Positions 4,878 to 20,830 of a DNA stretch of 64,000 bases are shown piece after piece. The notes below the pieces were generated by a model. The model did not search any database, was not told where the DNA came from, and worked only from the letters and a program-made list of their open reading frames with translations. Source of the DNA: an uncultured cyanobacterium (lineage in GTDB: Bacteria; Cyanobacteriota; Cyanobacteriia; Cyanobacteriales; Nostocaceae); the NCBI GenBank assembly GCA_963706595.1, contig OY970166.1, positions 4,608,001 to 4,672,000 of the forward strand, written 5' to 3'. The translations under genes and the position numbers were made by a program. The first letter of the stretch is position 1; each line of letters begins with the position of its first letter.

Positions 4878-5837
4878 ATGGATATAAAAACTATTGGTAT
4901 GATTAGCAGCTATGGCAATCTTGACAAAAGAGGTGATTGGCTGTGGCAACAAACCCCCCATCCATTAGGTATTTGGGGTAATATCCAAATGCAGGCGATC
5001 GCATCAAAACCAGATTTTCTGTTGCTGTATCAGTTTAACTTTCCCAAACCTCCCAAGCAACAATCTTGGTGGGATAATTTTCGCAAAAAACAACAAAAAA
5101 CTGCATTAAATCTTGATTCTTTGCTACGCGGAGTCAGCAAGGAAAGGATAATTTATTTGTTGCGGGAACCACCATTAGATGAAGTTGTAGAAAAACATCG
5201 TAGAGCATACCAGCAAGCTCAGAAATACTGCGGCTATGTTTCTGGACCTGATGATTTTGCGCCTCATCCCGACTATATGCCTGCTATTTGGTATCATGGC
5301 AACTCGTTTCAGGAATTAAATGAAATGCCACCACCGCCAAAAGTTTCTCCTTGCAGTTGGATCACTTCTGGTATTAGTCGTACTGCGAACCATCGTCAAA
5401 GATTAAACTTTTTACAGTCTTTACAGTCTAGCGACATTAAATTTGATTTGTATGGGCGCGATTTACCAACATGGGCAAAAACATCTGGTGAGTTGGGTAA
5501 TAAATGGCATGGAATGGCACCGTATTATTATAATCTTTCGATTGAAAACTATGCTGATAACAATTGGTATGTGAGTGAAAAATTATGGGATGCTTTGTTG
5601 GCTTGGTGTTTACCTATTTACTATGGTGGACCAGCAGCTGATAAATTATTACCACCAGGTAGTTTTTTGCGGTTACCTAGTTTAGATGAAAAAGGTTTGG
5701 CCTACATCCAGGACGTGACTGCTACTCCTGATGCTTGGTATGCTGCTAAAGATGCGATCGCAGAAGCTAGACAAATTATTTTACATAAATTAAACCTACT
5801 CAACTGGTTATCAGAATTTACTGGTAAATATTCTTAA
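4878..5837 (+). CDS. Glycosyltransferase family 10 (fucosyltransferase-like)
   Basis: YYYNLSIEN...YVSEKLWDALLAWCLPIYYG GT10 motif. Confidence 0.85.
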   Translation: MDIKTIGMISSYGNLDKRGDWLWQQTPHPLGIWGNIQMQAIASKPDFLLLYQFNFPKPPKQQSWWDNFRKKQQKTALNLDSLLRGVSKERIIYLLREPPLDEVVEKHRRAYQQAQKYCGYVSGPDDFAPHPDYMPAIWYHGNSFQELNEMPPPPKVSPCSWITSGISRTANHRQRLNFLQSLQSSDIKFDLYGRDLPTWAKTSGELGNKWHGMAPYYYNLSIENYADNNWYVSEKLWDALLAWCLPIYYGGPAADKLLPPGSFLRLPSLDEKGLAYIQDVTATPDAWYAAKDAIAEARQIILHKLNLLNWLSEFTGKYS

Positions 5838-5855
5838 TAAATTGGGGATTTTTAT

Positions 5856-6860
5856 ATGGATGGTATTTGTACTCTCGCCAACGACCGAGTTTATGAACAA
5901 GTCATTGCTTTACTCAACAGCATAGAGGCAATTTATGGGCAAGAAATGCCAGTTTGTATCTATCCTTATGACGACAATATAGCAAAACTTAGTGCAGAAA
6001 TTGCTCATCGTCCCCAAGTGCAACTTTACGATGATCGAGAATCGATTCAGAGATGGGATGAGTTTATTTGCCAGATTTGGGACGCACATCCCACAGCCGC
6101 AGAACATTGGTCAAAATTAGGTAAGGATAAATATCATCGAGTCGGTACTCATAGACGTTATGGTGCTTTTGATGGGCCATTTGACCGTTTCGTTTATATG
6201 GATGCCGATACTTTATTAATGAGTCCATTAACGGCAATTTTCAACCAGTTGAATAATCATGACTGGGTAGTATATGATTTCCAATACACAGATTTATCTC
6301 ATGTGTATCATCAAGCCTCGGCAAAGTTAACAGAAATATTTACACCACAACAACTGCAAACAGAAATATTTTGTTCGGGATTTTATGCTTCTAAAAAAGG
6401 GGTATTTGATGCCAAAATGCGAGAATCGTTACTAGAAAAACTTCGTCAAGGAGAAGCCGAAATACTTTATGATATGGCTCCTGACCAAACTATTCTTAAT
6501 TATATGGTCATGCGCTCAAAAATCTCTAGCTATAATTTTGCTCTGGAACTTCCCGAATCTGAAAAAACAGGATGTTGTGTAGTTTCTGAGCATTTTCAGA
6601 CTCAAGATAATATATTGTATGACAAAGGTAAACAATTAACTTATCTTCACTATATCGGCTTGAGTTCTAAATTATTTGTGCGAGTTTGTGAGGGAGAAAA
6701 TATTGATTTTCCCTATCGGGATGTTTTCTTACATTATCGCTATCTGCATGAACCAGACAAGCGTCCAAAATTTACAACTAAAGCCAAGGCTTATAACGCC
6801 CCTCCCAGTTTAGCTACAAAAGTTTTAAAAAAGTTAGGATTAACCAGTGGAGGTAAATAA
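5856..6860 (+). CDS. Npun_R2821/R2822-family nucleotide-diphospho-sugar transferase-like protein
   Basis: GICTLAND start, YMDAD DxD motif, DQTILNY; paralog of the next gene. Confidence 0.75.
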   Translation: MDGICTLANDRVYEQVIALLNSIEAIYGQEMPVCIYPYDDNIAKLSAEIAHRPQVQLYDDRESIQRWDEFICQIWDAHPTAAEHWSKLGKDKYHRVGTHRRYGAFDGPFDRFVYMDADTLLMSPLTAIFNQLNNHDWVVYDFQYTDLSHVYHQASAKLTEIFTPQQLQTEIFCSGFYASKKGVFDAKMRESLLEKLRQGEAEILYDMAPDQTILNYMVMRSKISSYNFALELPESEKTGCCVVSEHFQTQDNILYDKGKQLTYLHYIGLSSKLFVRVCEGENIDFPYRDVFLHYRYLHEPDKRPKFTTKAKAYNAPPSLATKVLKKLGLTSGGK

Positions 6861-6861
6861 G

Positions 6862-7803
6862 ATGAATCGCGGAATTTATATTATTGCTAATGACAAGGTT
6901 TTAGATCAGGCGATCGCACTCTTAAATAGTATCAGATTGCATGACGCAGATACACCAATTATCATAATCCCTTATGATGATAATTATCACCAGATAGCCG
7001 AAACACTTAACCAACATTATGGAGTAAAAGTTTACGAAGATTTAGATTTTATTGACCGTCTAGCGGGAAAGCTACATGAAACTTTTGGGGGCAAGTTTTT
7101 CGCTCGTCCCAATCAATTTCGGAAGCAGGCTTGTTGGTTTGGACCTTTTGATGAGTTTTTGTACATTGATACCGATATTGTCGTTTTTGAGAAGATTATT
7201 GATAATCTGAATTATTTGGCGGAATCAGATTTTATTTGTTGCGACTATCAACATTTAGGTGGGATTAAGAATGTTTTTAGTTCCCAGGTATTAGAAGATA
7301 AAATATTTACGGAAGCAGAAGTTAAAGAGATTTTTAACGGTGGGTTTTGGGGTTCCAAGAAAAACTTAGTCTCGGAAAATGATTTATATGAAACTTTTGC
7401 CGAGTGTGCAGCCCATCCAGAATACTTTGACTTTTCCGAAAAGACCTCGGATCAACCAATTATTAACTATATGTTGCTGAAGCGGATTCCACGTCGCTTT
7501 AATGTAGTTCGGAGAGAGGGTAAAGCACCGGGAAATTGGGCGGGAACTCCACACTTTCAGGCTGAAGGCAATATTCTCTTTGATCCTACAGTCAATCAAC
7601 CGCTACAATATCTCCACTGGGCGGGGATTCGGATTCAACCCGGCTGTCCTTACTGGGAAACTTGGGAACATTACCGCAACCTAAATCCAGCGTTACCTGC
7701 GGCGAATATACCCGCACCTGTAGAAAAAAGTCAGTTGCAAGGAACTCTCGAACAGGTGAAAAATCAACTTCGTAAACTGAAAAAAAGCGTTTTAAGTGAT
7801 TAA
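6862..7803 (+). CDS. Npun_R2821/R2822-family sugar transferase-like protein (paralog)
   Basis: GIYIIAND, YIDTD DxD, DQPIINY; ATG at 6862 follows GGAGG. Confidence 0.75.
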   Translation: MNRGIYIIANDKVLDQAIALLNSIRLHDADTPIIIIPYDDNYHQIAETLNQHYGVKVYEDLDFIDRLAGKLHETFGGKFFARPNQFRKQACWFGPFDEFLYIDTDIVVFEKIIDNLNYLAESDFICCDYQHLGGIKNVFSSQVLEDKIFTEAEVKEIFNGGFWGSKKNLVSENDLYETFAECAAHPEYFDFSEKTSDQPIINYMLLKRIPRRFNVVRREGKAPGNWAGTPHFQAEGNILFDPTVNQPLQYLHWAGIRIQPGCPYWETWEHYRNLNPALPAANIPAPVEKSQLQGTLEQVKNQLRKLKKSVLSD

Positions 7804-7998
7804 TTCCAGCCCAGTGCGATGGGCTTCACCCCGCCTTTGGCGATCGCATCTGAATTTTTTGACAACTAAATAGTTGCGATCGCACCCTACGATTCGCTAG
7901 GATCTGTAAGCTTTAGGTTATAAGCAAAGCTGCTGGTGATTGTGAGCTATGCTGCTAAAACCCAAGTTAATCAGATTTTACAGGAAAAAACGAAACCG

Positions 7999-8457
7999 AT
8001 GGCGAAACGTGTACAGTTAGTTTTAAATCAAGATATTAGCAAGCTGGGAAAATTAGGCGATTTAGTAGACGTAGCTCCCGGCTATGCTCGTAATTATCTC
8101 ATTCCCCAGAAATTGGCAACCCATGCTACTCCAGGTATTCTCAAACAAGTAGAACGCCGTCGCGAGAAAGAGTTTCAACGCCAACTAGAACTTCGTCAAC
8201 AAGCTTTAGAACAAAAAGCAGCTTTAGAAAAAATTGGCAGCTTGCAAATTTCCAAACCCCTTGGTGAAAACGAAGCAATTTTCGGGACAGTTACGACTCA
8301 AGATGTCGCTGAAGCAATTCAGGCGGCTACCAGTCAAGAAATTGATCGTCGTGGAATTACCATTCCTGATATTAACCATCTGGGAACTTACCAAGCCGAA
8401 GTCAAGCTACATTCTGACGTAACGGCTCAAGTTAATATTGAAGTTGTAGCCAGTTAA
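7999..8457 (+). CDS. rplI: 50S ribosomal protein L9
   Basis: [17 protein letters not shown] motifs; adjacent to dnaB; start taken at MAKRV. Confidence 0.97.
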
Positions 8458-8460
8458 GTG

Positions 8461-8575
8461 GTAGAGACGCGATGAATCGCGTCTGTACAAGAATTGCTGG
8501 TAGAGACGCAATGAATCGCGTATAAGGAATTGCTGGTAAAGACGCGATGAATCGCGTCTCTACAAGGAATTGCTG
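8461..8575. repeat. Three tandem REP-like palindromes GTAGAGACGCGATGAATCGCGTCTCTAC with near-identical linkers
   Basis: Direct reading; related copies at ~50599-50626 and ~57981-58005. Confidence 0.85.
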
Positions 8576-8604
8576 AGTGAATCCCATCCAAGTTGAAGTC
8601 GCTT

Positions 8605-9960
8605 ATGTCGGAAGAACTGAGTTTTCAAGGCGATGGTAGCGATCGCCTACCACCCCAAAATATTGAAGCAGAAGAAGCGATTTTGGGCGGAATTTTACTT
8701 GATCCAGAAGCCATTGGAAGAGTGAGCGATCGCCTCTTACCAATAGCCTTCTACATCAGCGCTCACAAAGATATCTATCAAGCCGCCCTGCGCCTCCATG
8801 CTCAAGGTAAACCCACAGACTTACTCTCAGTTACAAGTTGGCTAGCCGATAACGATATTCTCGCCCGGATTGGGGGCAGAAACAAATTAGCCACTCTCGT
8901 AGACCGCACAGTGTCAGCCGTTAACATTGATGCCTTAGCCGGGCTGGTAATGGAAAAATACCTGCGACGGCAGTTAATTAAAGCTGGTAACGAAATTGTC
9001 CATCTTGGTTACGAGACAGAAACCGAATTACCCACAGTTTTAGATCAAGCCGAACAGAAAGTTTTTGGTGTGACTCAAGATCGTGTCCAATCAGGTCTAA
9101 CTCACATTTCTGATACCCTGATTAATACCTTTCAAGATATTGAAACTCGTCACCAAGGCATTGCTCTCCCCGGTATTCCTTGCGGCTTCTATGATTTAGA
9201 TTCCTTAACCAGTGGCTTCCAGCGTTCTGATTTAATTATTATCGCCGGTAGGCCATCAATGGGGAAAACGGCATTTTGCTTAAATCTCGCTCACAATATC
9301 GCGGCTGGTTATAAATTACCGATAGCCTTTTTCAGCTTGGAAATGTCTAAAGAACAGCTAGCACAAAGACTATTAGCTAGTGAAGCGAAAATTGAAACTG
9401 GTTATTTGCGGAGTGGGCGCATTAGTCAAACACAATGGGAACCTTTAAGCCGTGCTATTGGTATGCTTTCAGAGATGCCCATTTTTATTGATGACACATC
9501 CAATATTACCATTACCCAAATGCGTAGTCAGGCTAGGCGACTGCAAGCAGAACAAGGAACTGAATTAGGATTAGTTGTGATAGATTATTTGCAATTAATG
9601 GAAGGTGGTGGTGATAACCGCGTCCAAGAATTATCAAAAATTACCCGTTCTCTCAAAGGTTTAGCCCGTGAATTATCTGTACCAGTGATTGCCCTCTCAC
9701 AGTTGAGTCGTGGAGTGGAAGCACGCACCAATAAGCGCCCCATGCTCTCAGATTTGAGGGAAAGTGGCAGTATTGAGCAAGACGCGGATTTAGTTATGAT
9801 GTTATACCGCGATGATTATTATAATCCTGACAGTCCTGATCGGGGGATTGCAGAAGTCAACATAGCTAAACACCGCAACGGTCCCACAGGTACGGTTAAA
9901 CTTTTATTTGATCCGCAATTTACAAAGTTTAAAAACTTAGCCAAACAAGGCAATTATTAA
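8605..9960 (+). CDS. dnaB: Replicative DNA helicase, no intein
   Basis: AGRPSMGKT, VIDYLQL, LRESGSIEQDAD uninterrupted. Confidence 0.97.
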   Translation: MSEELSFQGDGSDRLPPQNIEAEEAILGGILLDPEAIGRVSDRLLPIAFYISAHKDIYQAALRLHAQGKPTDLLSVTSWLADNDILARIGGRNKLATLVDRTVSAVNIDALAGLVMEKYLRRQLIKAGNEIVHLGYETETELPTVLDQAEQKVFGVTQDRVQSGLTHISDTLINTFQDIETRHQGIALPGIPCGFYDLDSLTSGFQRSDLIIIAGRPSMGKTAFCLNLAHNIAAGYKLPIAFFSLEMSKEQLAQRLLASEAKIETGYLRSGRISQTQWEPLSRAIGMLSEMPIFIDDTSNITITQMRSQARRLQAEQGTELGLVVIDYLQLMEGGGDNRVQELSKITRSLKGLARELSVPVIALSQLSRGVEARTNKRPMLSDLRESGSIEQDADLVMMLYRDDYYNPDSPDRGIAEVNIAKHRNGPTGTVKLLFDPQFTKFKNLAKQGNY

Positions 9961-13802: not shown

Positions 13803-15821
13803 ATGATTGTTAAGACACTTCCCCCGACTTCCCGAAACACCGAGGACGAACCACAAGTGACTGAAGTATTCACAAAAAATGGCAAATCAACTTTGGTTGT
13901 TCGTTCACCAAAACGCATAATTGACCAAAGTTTAGAGACTGATGCCATACTTTACGATCCCCAAGAGATAGGAGAATATTATCGCCACCGCCCCCTGAAA
14001 GTTTTGCGGCGGATTTTCGCAGTTTTAGGGCCGACTATTTCCTTTGTTTTTGGGTTGTGGTGGGACAGCCGGCGGGGAATAGCCGTGAAAAAAGACCAGC
14101 GTCGAGCCGTGCAGTTGCGAGAATTACTGACGAAACTGGGACCGGCTTACATCAAAATTGGACAGGCTTTATCCACTAGACCGGATTTGGTTCCCCCCGC
14201 ATATCTAGAAGAATTAACGAGGTTACAAGACCAATTACCGCCCTTTGCTAACGAAATTGCTTACCAATTTATTGAGGAAGAATTAGGCGCACCACCCCAG
14301 GAGATTTACGCCGAACTCTCCCCCCAGCCCATTGCGGCCGCTTCTTTGGGGCAAGTTTATAAAGGTAAACTAAAAACTGGTGAAGAAGTCGCCATTAAAG
14401 TCCAACGCCCTGATTTAAGAGAAAAAATTGCCATTGACTTGTTTATTTTGCGCCAACTGGCCGCTTGGGTAAAAAACAGAGTTAGACGAATCCGCAGTGA
14501 CTTGGTTGGTATCCTCGATGAATTAGGCGATCGCATCTTTGAAGAGATGGATTATATTCATGAGGGAGAAAATGCCGAACGCTTCTTTGAGTTATATGGT
14601 CATATAGAAGACATTTACGTTCCCAAGATTTACTGGGAATACACCAATCGGCGCGTGTTGACGATGGAGTGGATAAACGGCACAAAATTAACCCAAACCG
14701 CCGAGATTAACGCCCAAGGTATAGATGCCCGTTATTTGATAGAAGTGGGTGTGCAATGCTCTCTGCGCCAGCTACTAGAACACGGATTTTTCCATGCTGA
14801 CCCCCATCCTGGTAATTTGTTAGCTACACCAGAGGGTAAACTGGCTTATCTCGACTTTGGGATGATGAGCGAGGTGCAACCGCCCCAAAGATATGGTTTA
14901 ATTGAGGCGATCGTTCACGTTGTTAACCGCGACTTTGAAGGTTTAGCCAACGACTACGTAAAGCTAGATTTTTTATCCCCAGAAACAGATTTAACCCCAA
15001 TTATTCCTGCGTTTGCGAGAGTGTTTGCTGATGCTCAAGGAGCCAGTGTTGCTGACTTAAACATCAAAAGCATCACTGATGAACTTTCAGCTTTGATGTA
15101 TGAGTATCCTTTCCGCGTTCCTCCCTACTACGCGTTAATTATTCGCTCCCTGGTAACTTTGGAAGGTATTGCGATATATATAGACCCGGAATTTAAAGTT
15201 CTCAGTGAAGCATATCCTTATGTTGCGAAACGCCTGTTAACCGACCAAGCACCACAATTAAGAACATCTCTGCAAAATTTGTTGTTTAAAGATGAAAAAT
15301 TCCGGTGGAATCGGTTAGAAAACTTGCTACGCAATGCTAAGAAAAATCAAGATTACGACTTTAATCTAGTTTTAGACCAGGGAGTAGAATTTCTCTCTTC
15401 TGAACGTGGTTCATTTATTCGTGACAGGTTGGTAGATGAATTTTTGAATGGAATCAATGCTGTCAGCAAAAATGTTATGCACAATTTCACTTATGTGCTG
15501 CGAGAAAGAGTAGGTTTGACAGCAGTTAATGAAACTCCTGGGGCGACAGTTGAACAACAACAAACCTTAGAGCATATTAAAAATATTTTAACTATTCTCC
15601 GAGAAACCCGTGGTTTTGACCCACTACAACTAGCGCCCCAACTCGCCCAATTGTTAGTTAATCCAGGTGTTCAGCGTTTGGGTCAACAAATTACCAATCG
15701 CCTGACGCAGAAAGCCCTCGCTCGGTTAATTCGGGAGTTATTAGCGGCGGAAGAAGTTAATAACAATCAAGGTCGGGCGTTAGCGAAACCTGCCAGAGCA
15801 TCCTTACCAGCAAGGGTGTAG
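13803..15821 (+). CDS. ABC1/UbiB (AarF) family atypical kinase
   Basis: IKIGQ, AAASLGQVY, VAIKVQRP, FHADPHPGN, LDFGM. Confidence 0.93.
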   Translation: MIVKTLPPTSRNTEDEPQVTEVFTKNGKSTLVVRSPKRIIDQSLETDAILYDPQEIGEYYRHRPLKVLRRIFAVLGPTISFVFGLWWDSRRGIAVKKDQRRAVQLRELLTKLGPAYIKIGQALSTRPDLVPPAYLEELTRLQDQLPPFANEIAYQFIEEELGAPPQEIYAELSPQPIAAASLGQVYKGKLKTGEEVAIKVQRPDLREKIAIDLFILRQLAAWVKNRVRRIRSDLVGILDELGDRIFEEMDYIHEGENAERFFELYGHIEDIYVPKIYWEYTNRRVLTMEWINGTKLTQTAEINAQGIDARYLIEVGVQCSLRQLLEHGFFHADPHPGNLLATPEGKLAYLDFGMMSEVQPPQRYGLIEAIVHVVNRDFEGLANDYVKLDFLSPETDLTPIIPAFARVFADAQGASVADLNIKSITDELSALMYEYPFRVPPYYALIIRSLVTLEGIAIYIDPEFKVLSEAYPYVAKRLLTDQAPQLRTSLQNLLFKDEKFRWNRLENLLRNAKKNQDYDFNLVLDQGVEFLSSERGSFIRDRLVDEFLNGINAVSKNVMHNFTYVLRERVGLTAVNETPGATVEQQQTLEHIKNILTILRETRGFDPLQLAPQLAQLLVNPGVQRLGQQITNRLTQKALARLIRELLAAEEVNNNQGRALAKPARASLPARV

Positions 15822-15846
15822 GATTAGCAAGAGAAATTAAAATCCT

Positions 15847-15908
15847 GTAGGGGCGGGTTTACAGATATCATTCACCATTAACGAAGATATTGGTAAACCC
15901 GCCCCTAC
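15847..15908. repeat. REP-like inverted pair GTAGGGGCGGGTTTAC ... GTAAACCCGCCCCTAC
   Basis: 16-bp perfect inverted repeat between convergent genes. Confidence 0.85.
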
Positions 15909-15925
15909 CTTGGGTATGCCCTACT

Positions 15926-16840
15926 CTAGTTGCATTTGTAGAAAGTTCTGTTTAACAGAAGATTGCGTACCCGGATACAGTCTGGTAAAATGCGAAAACC
16001 TAAGAAATTAGCACCATGTTTGAGTTCAAATAACTGACTTTTCACAGGATGAATTTTTAATCTTAATTGAGATAAATATTCTACAACCTGCAAACGGGCT
16101 TCAGCTAAAAAGTTCCAATCATCAGAAAATAAAGCAAAGTCATCGACGTAGCGCAGGTATTTTCTAGCTTTGAGTTCTTCTTTCACAAAATGGTCAAAAC
16201 TATTTAAATAAACATTAGCAAAAAACTGGCTAGTAAGATTACCAAGCGGTAAACCCCGCCGTCTTTGTAGCGGTGTGAATAAATTATCCCCTGCAAAATG
16301 TTCAGCTATTGGTAACTGTGCGTTGCTGTTGTCAATCATCATATCTATTAACCACAGCGTATCTGCACATTTTAATTTATGACGCAGCAAGGTTTTAAGA
16401 AATTCGTGGTCAATGCTGGGAAAATATTTTTGGATATCGCACTGAAGTACATAGCGACTGGAACGAGCAAATTTGGTAAATCGCCGCAAGGCGCGATGAG
16501 TACCGAAACCTACGCGATTCGCGTAAGAATCACCGATAAAGCTGGATTCAATTAGAGGTACAATAATATTACATAAAGCATGATGTACTACTCTATCTCG
16601 GTAGGGAGCAGCAGAAATCATGCGAATTTTTGGCTCTTTAATGTAAAAGGTTCTATATTCACCCGGCTGATAAGTTTGATTAGTTAGTTCTGTTTGTAAT
16701 TTGGCTAATTCAGCTTCTAAGTTATAGTTAAAATCTAAAACATTTTCTCGGAATCTTTTACCCCTTTGGGCTTTTTTAGCGGCTATTAGGAGATTTTCAA
16801 AATTGATAATTTGATGATAAAGATTACCGTGACGTTTCAT
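15926..16840 (-). CDS. DGR-type reverse transcriptase, apparently C-terminally truncated
   Basis: [30 protein letters not shown] (DGR SQ motif), RYVDD, FLGF; ends ~20 aa after FLGF; abuts avd. Confidence 0.9.
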
Positions 16841-17197
16841 TTAATTTTTTACAGATTTTTGATAATTACTTTGTTGTTTAATCCAGCCACCTAAATCCAT
16901 ACCAATTTCATTAATTAATTTGCCTGCATATTCATATCGGTGGATGGGAATTAAATCAAAATCAAATAATATCCTAGTTTGATATTTTAAAATATCTATA
17001 ATGCTTTTAAGTGGTTCTAACACACTGAGTTTTTCTTGGCGATAGCGAGCAGTTAATAAACCCTCTAGCAAATCATATAATTGATTTGTCATTCTGTCAC
17101 CCAAGGTAAATTTATGAATTTTGGGCAACCGAGTCAGAATTGGGATGTACCATTTAATCAAGTCGTAGGTTTTTTGGATGATTGGTAATTCTTCCAT
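16841..17197 (-). CDS. avd: DGR accessory variability determinant (four-helix bundle)
   Basis: ELPIIQKTYDL...LPKIHKFTLGDR...INEIGMDLGGWIK; lies between target gene and RT. Confidence 0.9.
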   Translation of the reverse strand: MEELPIIQKTYDLIKWYIPILTRLPKIHKFTLGDRMTNQLYDLLEGLLTARYRQEKLSVLEPLKSIIDILKYQTRILFDFDLIPIHRYEYAGKLINEIGMDLGGWIKQQSNYQKSVKN

Positions 17198-17360
17198 TTA
17201 AATTTGAGAAATTTCGCTGTTTGGTTTACATGACAGATTTTATATGTTATACTAAATTATAAGAGTGTATATCTGTAAAAAATTGATCGCTCCGTTTCAC
17301 TACGCTAGGAAAGGGCAAAGAGGAACAAGAGCAAAGAGCAGAGGGCTAGAGTGCAAAGGG

Positions 17361-18845
17361 CTAAAGAGTCCTCGCCGCCGCACCACTACAGACAACCCGA
17401 AAACCGAGATAGTAGTTCGCGTGGTCTGGGTTGTGGTTGCCGCGACGGGCAGAACGACAGTTCTCAGGATAGTTGCCCGACGAACCACCGCGCAGCAGCC
17501 GTCTGTTTTGATTATCATTATCAATCCATTCACTACCGTTATCAGGCGCACGTTCGTAGTTACTGTGCCAAGTATCTAGACACCATTCCCACAGATTTCC
17601 GTGCATATCATACAGTCCAAAGGCATTAGGAGGAAAGCTGCCTACAGGTGTTGTTTTTCGCCGATACTGTCCTTCAGGGCTATTACCATAAGTGTAGTTA
17701 CCATCATAGTTAGCCACTTCAGTTGTAATTATATCACCAAAATGGAAATGTGTGACAGTGCCTGCACGACAAGCATATTCCCATTCCGCCTCACTGGGTA
17801 GTCGGTAATCAAGACCTATTTTTTGAGACAGTCTCTGGCAAAACTCAACTGCATCATACCACGAAATACTCTCTACAGGAAGATGATCATCCCCTTTAAA
17901 ATGAGATGGTCGAATCTCTAGTTTTCTCTTAATTTGTGGAAAAGATGCAGCCACTCTTGCCCATTGTGCTTGAGTTACTAGGTATCTTCCCATATAAAAG
18001 GATGGAACTGTTACTTGGTGTTCGGGGCGTTCATCATCGCCGCTTCCTTCCTCTTTTTCGGAAGCACCCATCATAAAAGTATCACCAGGAATCTTAACCA
18101 TTTCTAGGTTTACACCCTGACCTAAATCTTCTATGAAGCCTTTAGCGTGTTTTGATATAAATTCCTCGTGAACAAATACTTGATTCTCGTATTCTGTTTT
18201 AAATAGTCCTTTTTTTACTTCAACTCGCTTAATGTCCGTTTTTAGCTTTACTATTTCAAACTTAAACTCAAATTTCTGTAATTTTGACTCAGGTTCAATT
18301 GGGGATGGCGAAGGAACGGGCTGAGGATTGGAAACAGGGTTACGAGGTGGCAAAGGTCTCAGCTTACCAAGGGCTGGTTTTTCATTTGCAGGTTGATTAG
18401 TTAAGTGGCGATAAAGGTTTTCATAGCCTTCATCATTATGAGCAAAATAATGAGTAGTTCCTTGCAAAGGCTTAGGGATATCCTCAAATTTACCCGATTC
18501 TAGTAATACAGGTATAAACCTGTGATTTAATGCCCCTGCATTGAAAAGGTCTTGAGATGTCAGATGTCCTTCCCATCGCACACCATTTCCTCGTCCTGGT
18601 TCTTCTTCACCTTTGCAACGACGTTTATAGATTGCTGTACATATTACTAAAACAAAATTCGCTTGCTCAATCTGTCTTTCCATCCACCGAGGCCAGCCTT
18701 CGGGAGGCGCTAATTCATATTGGTCAAGATTGCAGTCAATTCCCGATTTACGTAGCTTATCCGATAATGCTAATACGCTTTGTTTATGTTCAGGCGAGTC
18801 CCAACTATAGCTAATAAAGACTTTTGGCGGAGTCTGATTTGACAT
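17361..18845 (-). CDS. DGR target protein: N-terminal SEFIR domain, Pro-rich linker, C-terminal FGE-sulfatase (CLec-fold) domain
   Basis: PKVFISYSWDSPEH...GWPRWM (SEFIR); RLPSEAEWEYACRAG, NAFGLYDMHGNLWEW, RGGS...GFRVV (FGE/CLec); start at MSNQ. Confidence 0.9.
   Translation of the reverse strand: MSNQTPPKVFISYSWDSPEHKQSVLALSDKLRKSGIDCNLDQYELAPPEGWPRWMERQIEQANFVLVICTAIYKRRCKGEEEPGRGNGVRWEGHLTSQDLFNAGALNHRFIPVLLESGKFEDIPKPLQGTTHYFAHNDEGYENLYRHLTNQPANEKPALGKLRPLPPRNPVSNPQPVPSPSPIEPESKLQKFEFKFEIVKLKTDIKRVEVKKGLFKTEYENQVFVHEEFISKHAKGFIEDLGQGVNLEMVKIPGDTFMMGASEKEEGSGDDERPEHQVTVPSFYMGRYLVTQAQWARVAASFPQIKRKLEIRPSHFKGDDHLPVESISWYDAVEFCQRLSQKIGLDYRLPSEAEWEYACRAGTVTHFHFGDIITTEVANYDGNYTYGNSPEGQYRRKTTPVGSFPPNAFGLYDMHGNLWEWCLDTWHSNYERAPDNGSEWIDNDNQNRRLLRGGSSGNYPENCRSARRGNHNPDHANYYLGFRVVCSGAAARTL
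17385..17500 (-). repeat. DGR variable repeat (VR) at the 3' end of the target gene
   Basis: Encodes LLRGGSSGNYPENCRSARRGNHNPDHANYYLGFRVVC; variable codons (GGC AAC TAT, CGT, GGC AAC CAC AAC, CAC, AAC TAC TAT CTC) fit descent from AAC/AAT/ATC. Confidence 0.75.
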
Positions 18846-19102
18846 ATTTTTAAAAAGGTAAAGATAAACCAAGTAGGGTGTGTTGTCGCGCAGCGCAACG
18901 CACCACAAACAATTCATAACTAATTTCCATAATCTACCGAGATATACTGACTCAAAAGACAAATACTATATTTTTAAACATTTTTCAAGTGTGTACCTAG
19001 CATAGCACTTCTCTACATAGCTATAAATACAGATCCAGCTAAAATATTGAAATTTGTAAGGACTTTAATTACTTTCTAAAAATAAAAATGGATTTGAGTT
19101 TT

Positions 19103-19287
19103 TAGAACTTACGCATTGTACAAATTAACATGGTATGCTGTTACCAAAAATAGCCAATTCCTGGCTTTGATGATGATATTTAGTAAATGTACTCGTGTGG
19201 TAAGGGTTTAGCATTGCTAAACCCCTACGAAATATGTATTTTTTAGTGTGTACATATTTGGTATTTATTGTCAATGCGTAAATCCTA
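19103..19287. mobile_element. MITE with TAG(A/G)A(C/T)TTACGCATTG inverted ends (IS630-like) and internal REP-like palindrome
   Basis: tagaacttacgcattg ... caatgcgtaaatccta; internal gtaagggtttagcattgctaaacccctac. Confidence 0.7.
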
Positions 19288-19321
19288 ATTTTGATGCTCA
19301 TCGAGAAATGAATAAAAGATC

Positions 19322-19354
19322 AGATCCCCGACTTCTTCAAGAAGTCGGGGATCT
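19322..19354. terminator. Perfect hairpin AGATCCCCGACTTCTT-C-AAGAAGTCGGGGATCT (dispersed repeat/terminator)
   Basis: 16-bp perfect stem just downstream of the 19366-19827 gene. Confidence 0.7.
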
Positions 19355-19365
19355 AAGCATCTCGA

Positions 19366-19827
19366 CTATAAAATAAAATATCTGGCAATAATGACGGTGA
19401 TTAATAATGTTAAATAAAACGGGTAAACAGAAAAAGAAAGACTAGAGGTAAATAATAAATTGACAACATTCATGCCTTTTGGTGGCTTCAGCATAAAAAG
19501 CTGATTAATTGTCACTTCGCCTGAATGTAAATCTTTGACAAAATCGTTATATATCTCCCGAAAGCTGCGTTCTTGACCCAAATAATATGAATCTAGTAAA
19601 AAGAACAGCACAATGGGGATAAGAGATATCCAAGCATAAGTAGGCTTATTCTTATCCGCTAATACGACTAAAGTTGCCGAAACCAGAGAAATACACCAAG
19701 TTTTGCAGCTGGCGCTATTATTTGCCATCCGCGCAATAACCCCTTGCAAAATATTCAGATAACTCTGCACAGAGTTAGAATCAGGGTCTACCTTATGTGG
19801 TTGTGACTGCGGATTAAAGTTACTCAC
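19366..19827 (-). CDS. Small multi-pass membrane protein
   Basis: YLNILQGVIARMANNSASCKTW...FFLLDSYYLGQERSFR; about three hydrophobic helices; GTG start. Confidence 0.75.
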   Translation of the reverse strand: MSNFNPQSQPHKVDPDSNSVQSYLNILQGVIARMANNSASCKTWCISLVSATLVVLADKNKPTYAWISLIPIVLFFLLDSYYLGQERSFREIYNDFVKDLHSGEVTINQLFMLKPPKGMNVVNLLFTSSLSFSVYPFYLTLLITVIIARYFIL

Positions 19828-19920
19828 GGAAACTTTTCGCTACTGTTGTGGTATTTTAATTCTTATTGTATATCGTTGACGCTGCTTTGATTGAATCCAA
19901 AATGGATAAAATCGAGCTAA

Positions 19921-20228
19921 GAGGGTGTTTGAAAAGTCGTAGAGTATACCCTAGACCCCTCTCCAAACCTCTCCCCGAAGCGGAGAGAGGCTTTGAAACC
20001 CCCATTCCAGCAACAAAAGTTTTTCCTTTTCCCTCTCCTTGTAGGAGAGGGCTAGGGAGAGGTAAGGAAGGGAGGCTATGGGGGGTTAGGTTTGTGTTAG
20101 CGATATAGCGGTTCTCGGTTGAGTGAGATACAAGAACCCCACCCCCAACCCCCTCCCCGCAAGCAAGGAGGGGGCTATGATGTATTTCATTCAAGTGCAT
20201 ACCGCTATAATACTTTTCAAACAACCTC
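19921..20228. mobile_element. IS5/IS1031-like MITE (GAG...CTC ends, TAA TSD) containing a nested TATAGCGGT...ACCGCTATA MITE (20104-20209)
   Basis: gagggtgtttgaaaagt ... acttttcaaacaacctc flanked by TAA at 19918-19920 and 20229-20231. Confidence 0.8.
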
Positions 20229-20234
20229 TAAGAC

Positions 20235-20669
20235 TTAATCTGAGTCTCTATGGTGGTCATTTCTGTCACGTTTAAGACTTTCTTCTAAAGCTTGAATCTG
20301 TTCTCTCCGGGCTTCTAATTCCAGAGAACGACGTGCTAAATCTTGATTTTGTAAAGTTAGAGATTGTCGCCAACTTTCAGCGATTTCTGCTTCTTTTTGC
20401 AAGTCAGTCGGTGTCATCCCAATGCTGAGAAAAGTTTGGACTAAATTTACTACCCAGTTCCTAGCATCTGCTAAACTTTCAATTTCACCTGTAGGGGAAA
20501 CCTGCACTAAAACCAGCAAATTCTCACTCACGGGAGTTGTTTTGCTCAACAAAACAAAACTTTCTTCTGGAATAACTACCCAAAGGTTTTGACTTTCTTG
20601 ACGTGCTAACAAGCGTAACTGATATTTGTCTGAAAATTCATTTTTATTTACTTGAGCTAGATATAGCAT
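20235..20669 (-). CDS. Conserved cyanobacterial coiled-coil protein (N-terminus resembles HmpF)
   Basis: MLYLAQV...LRLLARQ...ESWRQSLTLQNQDLARR. Confidence 0.6.
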   Translation of the reverse strand: MLYLAQVNKNEFSDKYQLRLLARQESQNLWVVIPEESFVLLSKTTPVSENLLVLVQVSPTGEIESLADARNWVVNLVQTFLSIGMTPTDLQKEAEIAESWRQSLTLQNQDLARRSLELEARREQIQALEESLKRDRNDHHRDSD

Positions 20670-20830
20670 GGCGTTCGATTCAGATTTGAATTGCCAAAAT
20701 ATTTTTAAGTTTAAATTTAATCTAAGTAGGTACAGGGCGGGCAAGATGCCCACCCCACAAGATTTATCATCTTAAGATGTGTACCTGATTTGCTGTCAAA
20801 GTGCTGTAACTCAACTGTTACCCATTACAG

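Follow-up and report, generated by a model that had tools for sequence, protein, structure and literature searches.

The locus described here raises the question of whether a retroelement of the DGR type still rewrites the ligand-binding face of a SEFIR-domain receptor, and whether this receptor and the small membrane (TM) protein encoded beside it belong to an immune or signalling module. It lies within a 64,000-nucleotide stretch of cyanobacterial DNA (the window), taken from an assembly of 5.57 Mb in a single contig with 94% completeness. We read the locus, with moderate confidence, as an eroded DGR cassette joined to a Thoeris-like pair of genes for immunity or signalling.

Organization of the Locus

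The initial annotation had proposed a co-oriented arrangement of TM gene, SEFIR-linker-FGE/CLec target, avd, and DGR-type RT. All four genes were found in this order, on the minus strand throughout, and the features are as follows:

19366-19827, minus strand: TM gene, 153 aa (from the ORF list)
19320-19356, minus strand: palindromic dispersed repeat directly 3' of the TM gene stop, terminator-like, with a T-rich tail after its 17-bp stem
18846-19365, no strand: spacer between TM gene and target, 520 nt of dispersed repeats
17361-18845, minus strand: SEFIR-linker-FGE/CLec target gene, 494 aa from the conserved ATG at 18845 (Pfam, PADLOC, alignment with relative G029)
18408-18827, minus strand: SEFIR domain (TIR superfamily), residues about 7-146 (Pfam SEFIR, TIR_2)
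17391-18104, minus strand: FGE-sulfatase/C-type-lectin-fold (CLec) domain bearing the variable region (VR) (Pfam PF03781, 3.1e-59)
17363-17501, minus strand: VR, with variable core 17392-17501 and a constant, IMH-like 3' end, GAGGACTC
16841-17197, minus strand: avd (accessory variability determinant), 118 aa, intact (Pfam bAvd, NCBIfam NF033474)
15926-16840, minus strand: DGR-type RT, truncated, 304 aa, of which residues 1-292 are homologous and are followed by 12 unrelated residues and a stop
15826-15964, no strand: junction filler from the truncated RT to the 3' end of the ABC1-kinase gene, including a 62-nt palindromic dispersed repeat (15847-15908)

The target was listed as 17361-18962, and the upstream TTG at 18962 would give a protein of 533 aa. 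The cassette lies next to chromosomal housekeeping genes (valS, ABC1 kinase). As a counterpoint to a functional pair, 520 nt of dispersed repeats with a terminator-like hairpin lie between TM gene and target; the equivalent spacer in G029 is 129 nt. The stretch 19306-19365 has 165 BLAST matches in the genome, and high summed read depth was observed at 18802-18942 and 19225-19365 in all four runs.

Truncation of the Reverse Transcriptase and Loss of the Template

The RT matches Pfam RVT_1 (3.8e-22) and carries the DGR-clade signature (GxxxSQ in motif 4, YxDD), with the motifs LGNLTSQ and YVDDF readable in its translation. It is 67-92% identical to full-length RTs of its family, including those of relatives G029, G041, and G070, beside which TR/VR pairs are found. 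Homology stops at residue 292 (position 15965), where the DNA homology to G029 also ends. The 60-residue tail that is absent (293-352) is conserved in 18/18 aligned relatives, with RTs of 352-358 aa, and no copy of it was found elsewhere in the genome; among the 120 best database matches, the shortest has at least 313 aa. The filler occupies the expected site of the RT tail, the template (TR), and a conserved post-TR element, and it has 16 other matches in the genome, of which 11 span the greater part of the 62-nt palindrome with 81-92% identity.

No TR for the window VR was found by repeat search in 15500-20300 or by BLAST (word size 7) of the whole 5.57-Mb assembly; these searches returned only paralogue VRs and, at 62-67% identity, two unrelated TRs. 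With the end of the RT, the template, and the element after it gone, the DGR in the window does not look able to diversify now, and the RT has probably lost its activity, judging from its sequence. The surviving 292 RT codons show a dN/dS of 0.16 without internal stops, and avd is intact (bAvd, 1.8e-19; NF033474, DivGenRetAVD, 133.2 bits against a cutoff of 80) with a dN/dS of 0.18. This purifying selection on the RT, together with the intact avd, suggests that either the deletion is recent or the RT stump is still used.

The window RT is the only DGR-type RT found in the assembly, which also holds two RT-less modules of target, TR, and element (locA and locB) that would need an RT in trans. 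The VR/TR mismatches of both modules lie mostly at adenines (13/16 in locB). Given the single contig at 94% completeness, a plasmid may carry another RT or TR. In metagenome run X1, a joint 15964->17363 occurs among contigs whose flank and RT sequences are nearly identical to those here, so that a close relative could still have a TR there.

Intact Cassettes and Erosion in Relatives

The same four-gene cassette is intact in G029 (TM gene 5504-5965, target 6095-7528, avd 7695-8051, RT 8193-9251), with a TR (about 9270-9408) and a conserved element of ~140 nt directly after the RT. The TR and downstream element also follow the RT directly at three loci of G070 and in G041. The cassette, including the TM gene, stands in differing chromosomal contexts in genomes G000 and G029, which argues that the TM gene is part of the unit.

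At the site flanked by valS and the ABC1 kinase gene, the cassette has been retained in three species, forming an erosion series in which 292 RT codons survive in the window and about 102, with different filler, at locus L050, and neither avd nor RT is found at L052. The TM gene and the TIR/SEFIR-CLec gene are open at all three. The TM gene is 97% identical in G099; in G047, one of two other genomes of the genus that were searched, neither TM nor RT gave a match.

Signature of Past Diversification in the Variable Region

The prototype DGR is that of Bordetella phage BPP-1, in which Avd and RT carry out adenine-specific mutagenic homing from TR to VR into a CLec fold, and IMH is distinguished from IMH*. 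A comparable IMH/IMH* pair is present in G029 at the 3' ends of VR and TR (GAGGACTC vs GAGCGCTC). This clade departs from BPP-1 in its gene order, target-avd-RT-TR-element, with the TR after the RT, and in having a cytoplasmic signalling protein as target where the phage has a tail fibre.

Compared with the G029 TR, the window VR has 14 mismatches in the 110-nt core. Of these, 13 fall on adenines of the TR; with adenines at 28% of core positions, the binomial P is 7e-7, for a template from another genome. The VR of G029 itself differs from its TR at adenines only (13/13 core mismatches), and the VRs of the window, L050, L052, and G029 show 18-23 pairwise core differences, 16-20 of them at TR adenines. 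These adenine-site mismatches, together with the broken retroelement, point to earlier diversification of a VR that is frozen today. The initial annotation had taken the VR to be diversified by the adjacent DGR, to be doubted if no TR with adenine-specific differences were found; such a TR is missing from the genome of the window but present in the relative G029. Thus, the adenine-specific signature holds (13/14), but no ongoing diversification is expected here.

Two further changes were observed among the targets. In the window VR, the conserved GGSW reads GGSS (TGG to TCG), while GGSW is kept in 9/9 other CLec paralogues with a readable frame; this Trp-to-Ser change may mean that the CLec domain itself is impaired. 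In a remote target of the same TR family, the reading frame is shifted, and its VR has an uncorrected 1-nt insertion.

The SEFIR-CLec Target Protein

The N-terminal domain of the target is matched more strongly by SEFIR (6.5e-18, 65.9 bits) than by TIR_2 (2.7e-15, 57.4 bits). Residues 35-317 match the PADLOC bSEFIR profile (1.9e-60) over positions 30-285 of 412; the remaining part of the profile (286-412) is unmatched, and the FGE/CLec domain is found there instead. The SEFIR domain is also homologous to PDB entry 5Y8E, 'Sefir domain protein' (7.9e-28, with the Glu aligned), and to Act1/TRAF3IP2 (5.5e-12). Residue E92, in a GVxWE motif, is invariant in 6/6 aligned SEFIR sequences and in 5Y8E; it may be the equivalent of the catalytic Glu of TIR domains, and the protein is putatively an NAD+-cleaving enzyme.

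The Membrane Protein and Its Linkage to TIR/SEFIR Genes

The TM protein has no Pfam or NCBIfam family, and it matches all four PADLOC models of PDC-M50A (1.1e-30 to 4.6e-18). Its gene shows a dN/dS of 0.09 against G029, and an alignment of 53 family sequences has invariant residues listed as polar at Q28, R33, K42, Y82, L83, E86, and S131. The predicted structure (pLDDT 87, pTM 0.77) is a long helical hairpin (18-59, 62-102) with C-terminal helices, hydrophobic windows lie at 65-84 and 129-153, and fold searches with the model gave no informative structural match. By sequence profile, the 53 family members had no match to SLATT, Macro, or DUF2270 among the 25 families listed, out of 32 with matches at E<=1.

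PDC-M50 is a candidate defence system of PADLOC in which A is the TM protein and B a ThsB-like TIR protein; it is a computational candidate, and no publication naming it was found. Among the 80 best TM loci, from many phyla, the nearest neighbour is a ThsB_TIR, TIR_2, or SEFIR ORF in 59, counting matches at Pfam's cutoff or above and including related loci that are not independent, and one further locus has a sub-threshold TIR-type neighbour, making 60. A TIR-type neighbour was likewise found in 10/12 loci of the TM family that were scanned, and reciprocally, 9/12 SEFIR homologues of the family have a TM homologue within 8 kb. The linkage of the TM family to TIR-domain genes, which the initial annotation had put forward, is therefore borne out by these neighbourhoods and by the PDC-M50 pair.

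Outside cyanobacteria, TM family genes are mostly neighbours of ThsB-type TIR genes, and restriction-modification methylases, transposases, or recombinases are often encoded alongside; such genomic context is why PADLOC named PDC-M50 a defence candidate. Close TM homologues adjoin proteins matching PDC-M50B/ThsB (up to 1.8e-64). The target in the window did not match the PDC-M50B model (PDLC04688), its only PADLOC matches at E<=0.01 being bSEFIR and a weak Aga. The SEFIR/TIR_2 domain nevertheless occupies the position of the B component beside the TM gene, so that the window has the A protein of PDC-M50 and, in place of B, a protein that joins a DGR-variable CLec to SEFIR (or TIR_2).

Relation to Known Systems

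Cyanobacterial DGRs with multidomain CLec targets have been described, with RTs of clade 5E (Doré et al., 2024, PMC10907252; also PMC7517822 and Kaur et al., 2020, PMC7159879), and these papers list TIR-like N-termini, describe remote targets as well as TRs at other genomic sites, and present the targets as diversified antigen sensors. TIR-CLec targets and the antigen-sensor idea are thus already published, while a term search found the word SEFIR absent from Doré et al. 2024 (PMC10907252) and Vallota-Eastman et al. 2020 (PMC7517822). The cassette in the window shares with these DGRs the Avd, the GxxxSQ RT, the VR at the 3' end of an FGE/CLec domain, and the grafting of N-terminal signalling or effector domains on the CLec. 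It differs in its SEFIR N-terminus, in having a small membrane protein and not MoxR, vWA, or STAND as partner, and in its truncated RT and missing TR.

Protection against phage phi29 is reported for bSEFIR (Millman et al., 10.1101/2022.05.11.491447), and SEFIR is counted among NAD+-cleaving defence domains in one account (PMC12774641). The target resembles bSEFIR in its N-terminal SEFIR domain, the region after it, and the homology to 5Y8E; however, bSEFIR is a single-gene system, whereas the target has a CLec C-terminus and a TM partner gene. Thoeris systems, of which 29 putative types are given in one preprint (10.64898/2025.12.03.692087), have membrane effectors such as the Macro-TM protein of type II and the SLATT effector ThsH of type VII. 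The likeness to Thoeris lies in a TIR-family sensor adjoining a small membrane-spanning effector, and several TIR/SEFIR genes may share one effector, as suggested by G071, where one TM gene has three SEFIR genes nearby. In contrast to Thoeris, the sensor is SEFIR-CLec and not ThsB, and SLATT, Macro, and DUF2270 do not appear among the 25 families listed for the TM family. A link between a DGR-diversified sensor and a PDC-M50A membrane effector was not found in the published literature; the TM family may be one of the 29 putative Thoeris types.

Alternative Explanations

It is highly improbable, in our view, that the DGR is still active, with the 304-aa RT and Avd sufficing and the template supplied in trans, either from an unassembled replicon or as the TR RNAs of locA and locB acting on their own targets, so that the SEFIR-CLec VR or other VRs would still be diversified. 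The low dN/dS of RT and avd, the absence of internal stops, the status of the window RT as the sole DGR-type RT in an assembly of one contig at 94% completeness, and the maintenance of RT-less modules with mismatches mostly at adenines would fit such activity. Against it, the missing 60 residues are conserved in every aligned relative, none of the 120 best RT homologues is as short, no TR in the assembly exceeds 67% identity to the window VR, the same site is eroded further at L050 and L052, and the 1-nt insertion in the remote VR has stayed uncorrected. Decay of the whole module, in which the target and perhaps the TM gene would be as functionless as the DGR, seems to us improbable as well. 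The loss of the otherwise invariant Trp of GGSW, the repeats inserted between the TM gene and the target, the frameshift in the remote target, and the genome of the genus without TM or RT match (G047) agree with decay, but purifying selection on the TM gene is strong, the gene is 97% identical in G099, the target ORF is open across 494 codons, and L050 and L052 keep both ORFs after most or all of the RT was lost.

An unlikely but less remote alternative is that SEFIR-CLec and the TM protein have no antiviral function and serve regulation, self-recognition, or programmed cell death in a multicellular cyanobacterium, as a circuit tuned by DGRs. Vallota-Eastman et al. 2020 (PMC7517822) argue that the targets of cyanobacterial DGRs, TIR-like ones included, tune signal transduction, and a chromosomal cassette beside valS and the ABC1 kinase gene, at a site kept in three species, is consistent with this. 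It is opposed by the company that the TM family keeps outside cyanobacteria, namely ThsB-type TIR genes often near restriction-modification methylases, transposases, and recombinases, and by the match of the target's N-terminal half to the experimentally defensive bSEFIR family.

Proposed Mechanism and Implications

According to the reading of an eroded cassette attached to a Thoeris-like pair, the intact form is that of G029, comprising the TM gene, the SEFIR-CLec target, avd, RT, TR, and the conserved RNA element of ~140 nt. The RT-Avd complex would copy the TR with adenine-specific errors, and the mutated copy would overwrite the last ~110 nt of the target's CLec fold, varying its ligand-binding face. 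The SEFIR domain would serve as the output, oligomerising on ligand binding and possibly cleaving NAD+, either to deplete it or to produce an ADPR-type signal. The PDC-M50A membrane protein, the usual partner of ThsB-type TIR proteins, would act as the putative effector, damaging the membrane or arresting growth. In the window, a deletion with a dispersed palindromic repeat at its junction would have taken the last 60 residues of the RT, the TR, and the post-TR element, so that the VR could no longer be rewritten and would be a frozen former variant. The description as an adaptive-receptor-like system, given in the initial annotation, thus suits the intact form in G029 but not the frozen copy in the window.

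For the intact relatives, represented by locus L031 of G029, we tentatively suggest, as a possibility somewhat short of even, that the DGR rewrites the face of a SEFIR/TIR sensor which signals to PDC-M50A, giving a Thoeris-like abortive infection system, with a presumed anti-phage role, whose receptor can be diversified within a lineage. If this is true, the window, L050, and L052 would represent receptors that became fixed as the retroelement eroded, the sensor-effector pair being kept.

Gene Organization of the Cassette

Four genes of one orientation on the minus strand span positions 15926-19827 of the window, the last two of which abut.

Genes of the cassette in the window
19366-19827, minus: membrane (TM) protein, 153 aa; ORF without Pfam or NCBIfam family
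17361-18845, minus: SEFIR-linker-FGE/CLec (C-type lectin) target, 494 aa; Pfam SEFIR, TIR_2 and FGE-sulfatase
16841-17197, minus: accessory variability determinant (avd); Pfam bAvd, and NCBIfam DGR Avd above cutoff
15926-16840, minus: reverse transcriptase (RT); Pfam RVT_1, motifs LGNLTSQ and YVDDF

Alignment with the homologue of the related genome G029 places the target start at the ATG at 18845, the listed ORF start being the TTG at 18962. The ORFs, the Pfam and NCBIfam matches and the RT motifs agree, and the gene set read in the initial annotation (TM, SEFIR-CLec target, avd and DGR-type RT) is therefore correct. A syntenic and complete cassette is present in G029 (locus L031), with the TM gene, a target of 477 aa, avd and an RT of 352 aa. 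Its neighbours there are inositol monophosphatase on one side and, on the other, hisZ with a DnaJ-like gene, whereas the flanks in the window genome, G000, are valS with an hmpF-like ORF and, on the other side, an ABC1 kinase; these differences indicate that the TM gene moves as part of the cassette. The hmpF-like ORF (172 aa, 20235-20753, minus) matches only positions 1-135 of the 553 of the HmpF pilus-motility taxis model, and is kept at the same position in loci L034 and L052.

In G029, approximately 20 nt separate the RT stop from the template repeat (TR), and a conserved element of approximately 140 nt comes next; the order RT-TR-element is also found at three loci of G070 and in G041. 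The element (L031:9409-9560 and homologues; L142:3202-3350) is conserved across genera, with 70-91% identity in one comparison and 80-87% in another. Rfam searches of the window, L031 and two RT-less modules of G000 (L142 and L143) returned only two tRNAs, leaving the element without an Rfam family. In the DGR of Bordetella phage, a spacer RNA primes cDNA synthesis, and the post-TR element may, by analogy, be its counterpart.

Truncation of the RT and Loss of the Template

The RTs of this family are 352-358 aa long, and none of the best 120 database matches is shorter than 313 aa. DNA homology between the window and G029, the closest relative, ends at 15965, corresponding to RT residue 292, beyond which the window encodes 12 unrelated residues and a stop, with 60 RT residues missing. 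The conserved C-terminal tail (ENLRRAxRRL...SWFAHLEHGDTW...), found in all 18 aligned relatives, is absent from the window RT, and a whole-assembly search found no other place that encodes the lost 60 residues. Over the 292 surviving positions, the closest full-length homologue, P0121 (352 aa), shares 281 residues. Relative to G029, dN/dS is 0.16 over the surviving RT codons (1-292) and 0.18 for avd, low values which indicate that the deletion is recent relative to the divergence from G029.

The template is missing as well. A repeat search found no repeat of the variable region (VR) in the target-avd gap, at the avd/RT junction or 3' of the RT. A whole-genome search with the VR gave one match at 81%, to another VR of its family (genome positions 1870907-1871113); the remaining matches, all at 62-67%, were two unrelated TRs and the 3' ends of further CLec paralogues. 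The retroelement of the window is defective, a recently disabled copy. The architecture proposed in the initial annotation stands, including the link of the TM gene to TIR genes described below, but the working hypervariable module does not, as the window copy has lost the C-terminal RT tail and its VR has no matching TR in the assembly. It should be annotated as a defective DGR and not as an active hypervariable locus.

Adenine Signature of the VRs

All VRs were scored over a 110-nt core against the TR of G029; L050 and L052 are loci of relatives at the chromosomal site of the window.

Core mismatches of VRs against the G029 TR
G029 VR (own TR): 13, of which 13 at TR adenines
Window VR: 14, of which 13 at TR adenines; exception, GGSW to GGSS
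L050 VR: 18, of which 17 at TR adenines
L052 VR: 16, of which 14 at TR adenines
Remote G000 VR: 14, of which 12 at TR adenines; one is a 1-nt frame-breaking insertion

Between genomes, the VRs vary almost exclusively at sites that are adenines in the TR (19 of the 21 differing sites between the window and L050), which indicates that diversification continued after the lineages split. Judged by its sequence, the window VR (17363-17501) is a formerly diversified region, and it retains an intact IMH-like end. The Trp codon of GGSW has no adenines in the TR; in the window, codon TCG (17447-17449) replaces this Trp by Ser, and the nine other CLec paralogues of the genome keep it. The remote VR belongs to a caspase-CLec target (L144, G000:C1:1866000-1876000; gene 4954-6930, minus; also L002), comes from the same lost TR family as the window VR and is identical to it at the 3' end; the insertion puts the final ~30 codons out of frame.

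Erosion at the Shared Chromosomal Site

Relatives have lost the retroelement at this site to different extents. The RT remnant comprises 292 codons in the window and approximately 102 in L050, with a different junction filler, and L052 has neither avd nor RT. The TM and TIR/SEFIR-CLec genes are open in all three loci, the N-terminal domain of the target being SEFIR in the window and G029 and TIR_2 in L050 and L052. Homology of the window with L050 and L052 is interrupted between 18146 and 19287, while the TM gene and the CLec half are homologous. Comparing intact with eroded copies shows the putative sensor-effector pair to be retained longer than the retroelement.

The junction at 15826-15964 contains a 62-nt palindromic repeat with 16 other matches in the genome, 11 of them across most of the palindrome. 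An exact search of metagenome contigs for the junction filler gave 0 matches. Joints anchored at 15964 in metagenome/isolate contigs lead to 16459 in one run (X2) and to 17363 in another (X1), whose contigs also break at both VR edges (17400 and 17480); behind the X1 joint there may be a larger deletion, recombination between VR and TR, or a TR that is still intact. Dispersed repeats, one at the RT truncation junction and several occupying the TM-target spacer, have BLAST matches in the genome numbering ~11 (15847-15908), ~74 (18866-18905), ~20-53 (19086-19300) and ~165 (19306-19365).

Other DGR Components in the Genomes

Two RT-less modules of G000, L143 (G000:C1:3650800-3657800) and L142 (G000:C1:4447500-4454500), have a caspase-CLec and a 978-aa protein-CLec as targets. 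Each consists of a CLec target, a terminator-like hairpin, a promoter-like site, its own TR and the conserved ~140-nt element; over 452 nt, the modules share 86.5% identity. Most of their VR/TR mismatches lie at adenines (13 of 16 in the one termed locB), and no avd or RT remnant was found in either. An RT would have to be supplied in trans to both, and the sole DGR RT found in G000 is the truncated one of the window.

TR-plus-element matches away from any RT also occur in other genomes (G050:C1:4436785-4437382, G003:C38, G046:C76, G031:C4, G010:C1 and G101:C70), the VR/TR layout having been read for G050 only. An RT is located elsewhere in G003, G046 and G031; the RT query found no full-length RT in G050 (an 86-residue fragment only), G010 or G101 (none). 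At L141/L152 (G029:C11:8780-12040), the post-TR element comes directly after the VR of a CLec target, with no separate TR, a layout that VR/TR recombination deleting avd and RT would leave.

The TM Protein and Its TIR/SEFIR Partners

The TM protein matches four models of PDC-M50A (best 1.1e-30), the small TM component of a PADLOC candidate system whose B component is a ThsB-like TIR. Its family occurs at 17 places in 14 of 121 family genomes. A ThsB_TIR, TIR_2 or SEFIR gene was present at 10 of the 12 neighbour loci scanned (L042, L043 and L048 left out), L046 and L047 being the exceptions, and the ThsB-type neighbours match PDC-M50B. Species genomes yielded 574 TM relatives, from many bacterial phyla and some archaea. 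For the best 80 of these loci, the nearest ORF of at least 100 aa within 500 nt on each side was taken (146 ORFs; none for L064). A TIR-superfamily neighbour at or above the Pfam cutoff was found at 59 of the 80, one locus (L060) had only a sub-threshold match and 20 had none. Most commonly, a ThsB-type TIR of ~160 aa lies directly upstream of the TM gene and co-oriented with it. Other partners include SEFIR-PfkB (L053), Roc-COR-TIR (L066, L117) and an 809-aa TIR_2 protein (L059); restriction-modification methylases, transposases and recombinases are further frequent neighbours.

Conversely, homologues of the target SEFIR occupy 12 places in 8 of 121 genomes, and 9 of these (not G014:C321, G014:C327 or G085:C42) have a TM match on the same contig within 8 kb, six within 1.6 kb. 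The loci are mutually related, and these counts are not independent; a chance neighbour relation is rejected by the TIR-type neighbours in both scans and the proximity of TM genes to SEFIR places. The association of the TM family with TIR genes, stated in the initial annotation, is borne out by this neighbourhood analysis.

A divergent TM branch (~22% identity) lies between a NUDIX hydrolase and a SEFIR or TIR_2 protein (L041, L044 and L045, scanned; L042, L043 and L048, read only). At G071:C35:27202-35612, one TM gene is accompanied within 8 kb by three SEFIR paralogues, whose open frames measure 244, 686 and 1564 aa, a layout resembling several sensors with one common effector.

The TM protein is confidently predicted (pLDDT 87) as a long helical hairpin with C-terminal helices, with hydrophobic stretches at 65-84 and 129-153. 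The polar residues Q28, R33, K42 and E86 are invariant, N37, S38, D79, R90 and N94 nearly so, and all of them lie in the membrane-proximal hairpin halves. A Foldseek search of the PDB gave a best E-value of 0.47; a wide VIA-align search gave generic long-helix matches only (Z ≤ 8.8, within the stated noise range for helical models); the nearest ESM Atlas clusters are 'hypothetical protein' clusters.

Proposed Mechanism and Relation to Known Systems

The SEFIR domain matches a bacterial SEFIR structure (5Y8E, 7.9e-28) and human Act1 SEFIR (5.5e-12), and the Glu of GVxWE is invariant in 6 aligned SEFIR sequences and 5Y8E. bSEFIR is described as protecting B. subtilis against phi29 (10.1101/2022.05.11.491447), and SEFIR is among the domains listed as cleaving NAD+ upon activation (PMC12774641). 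By analogy with the sensor-to-membrane-effector logic of Thoeris systems (10.64898/2025.12.03.692087; type II Thoeris), a ligand bound at the CLec face would activate the SEFIR domain, which would use up NAD+ or produce an ADPR-type signal, and the TM protein would act as effector.

For cyanobacterial DGRs, the literature already describes TIR-like target N-termini, targets at remote positions and TRs located elsewhere in the genome, and it also interprets DGR targets as antigen sensors that are diversified (PMC7517822, PMC10907252, PMC7159879). Literature searches on DGR and SEFIR, PDC-M50, and DGR and Thoeris found neither a fused SEFIR nor a PDC-M50A partner, nor a paper naming PDC-M50, nor a link to TM effectors by title or abstract; the searches did not extend to the supplement of the Thoeris preprint, where the effector family may be listed. 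The cassette is a known kind of DGR system in a new form; the copy here is disabled, and a related genome retains the intact version. The MoxR-vWA or STAND outputs proposed for DGR targets in multicellular bacteria are large and hard to test, whereas here the CLec is fused directly to SEFIR/TIR beside one small membrane protein, whose family otherwise partners ThsB-type TIR proteins in many phyla. By this analogy, a read-out from only two genes, in which a membrane effect follows NAD+ cleavage or ADPR-type signalling, would be assayable in a laboratory host. That the pair persists after loss of the retroelement is relevant to the question of whether diversification by the DGR must be continuous or serves only to arrive at a specificity.
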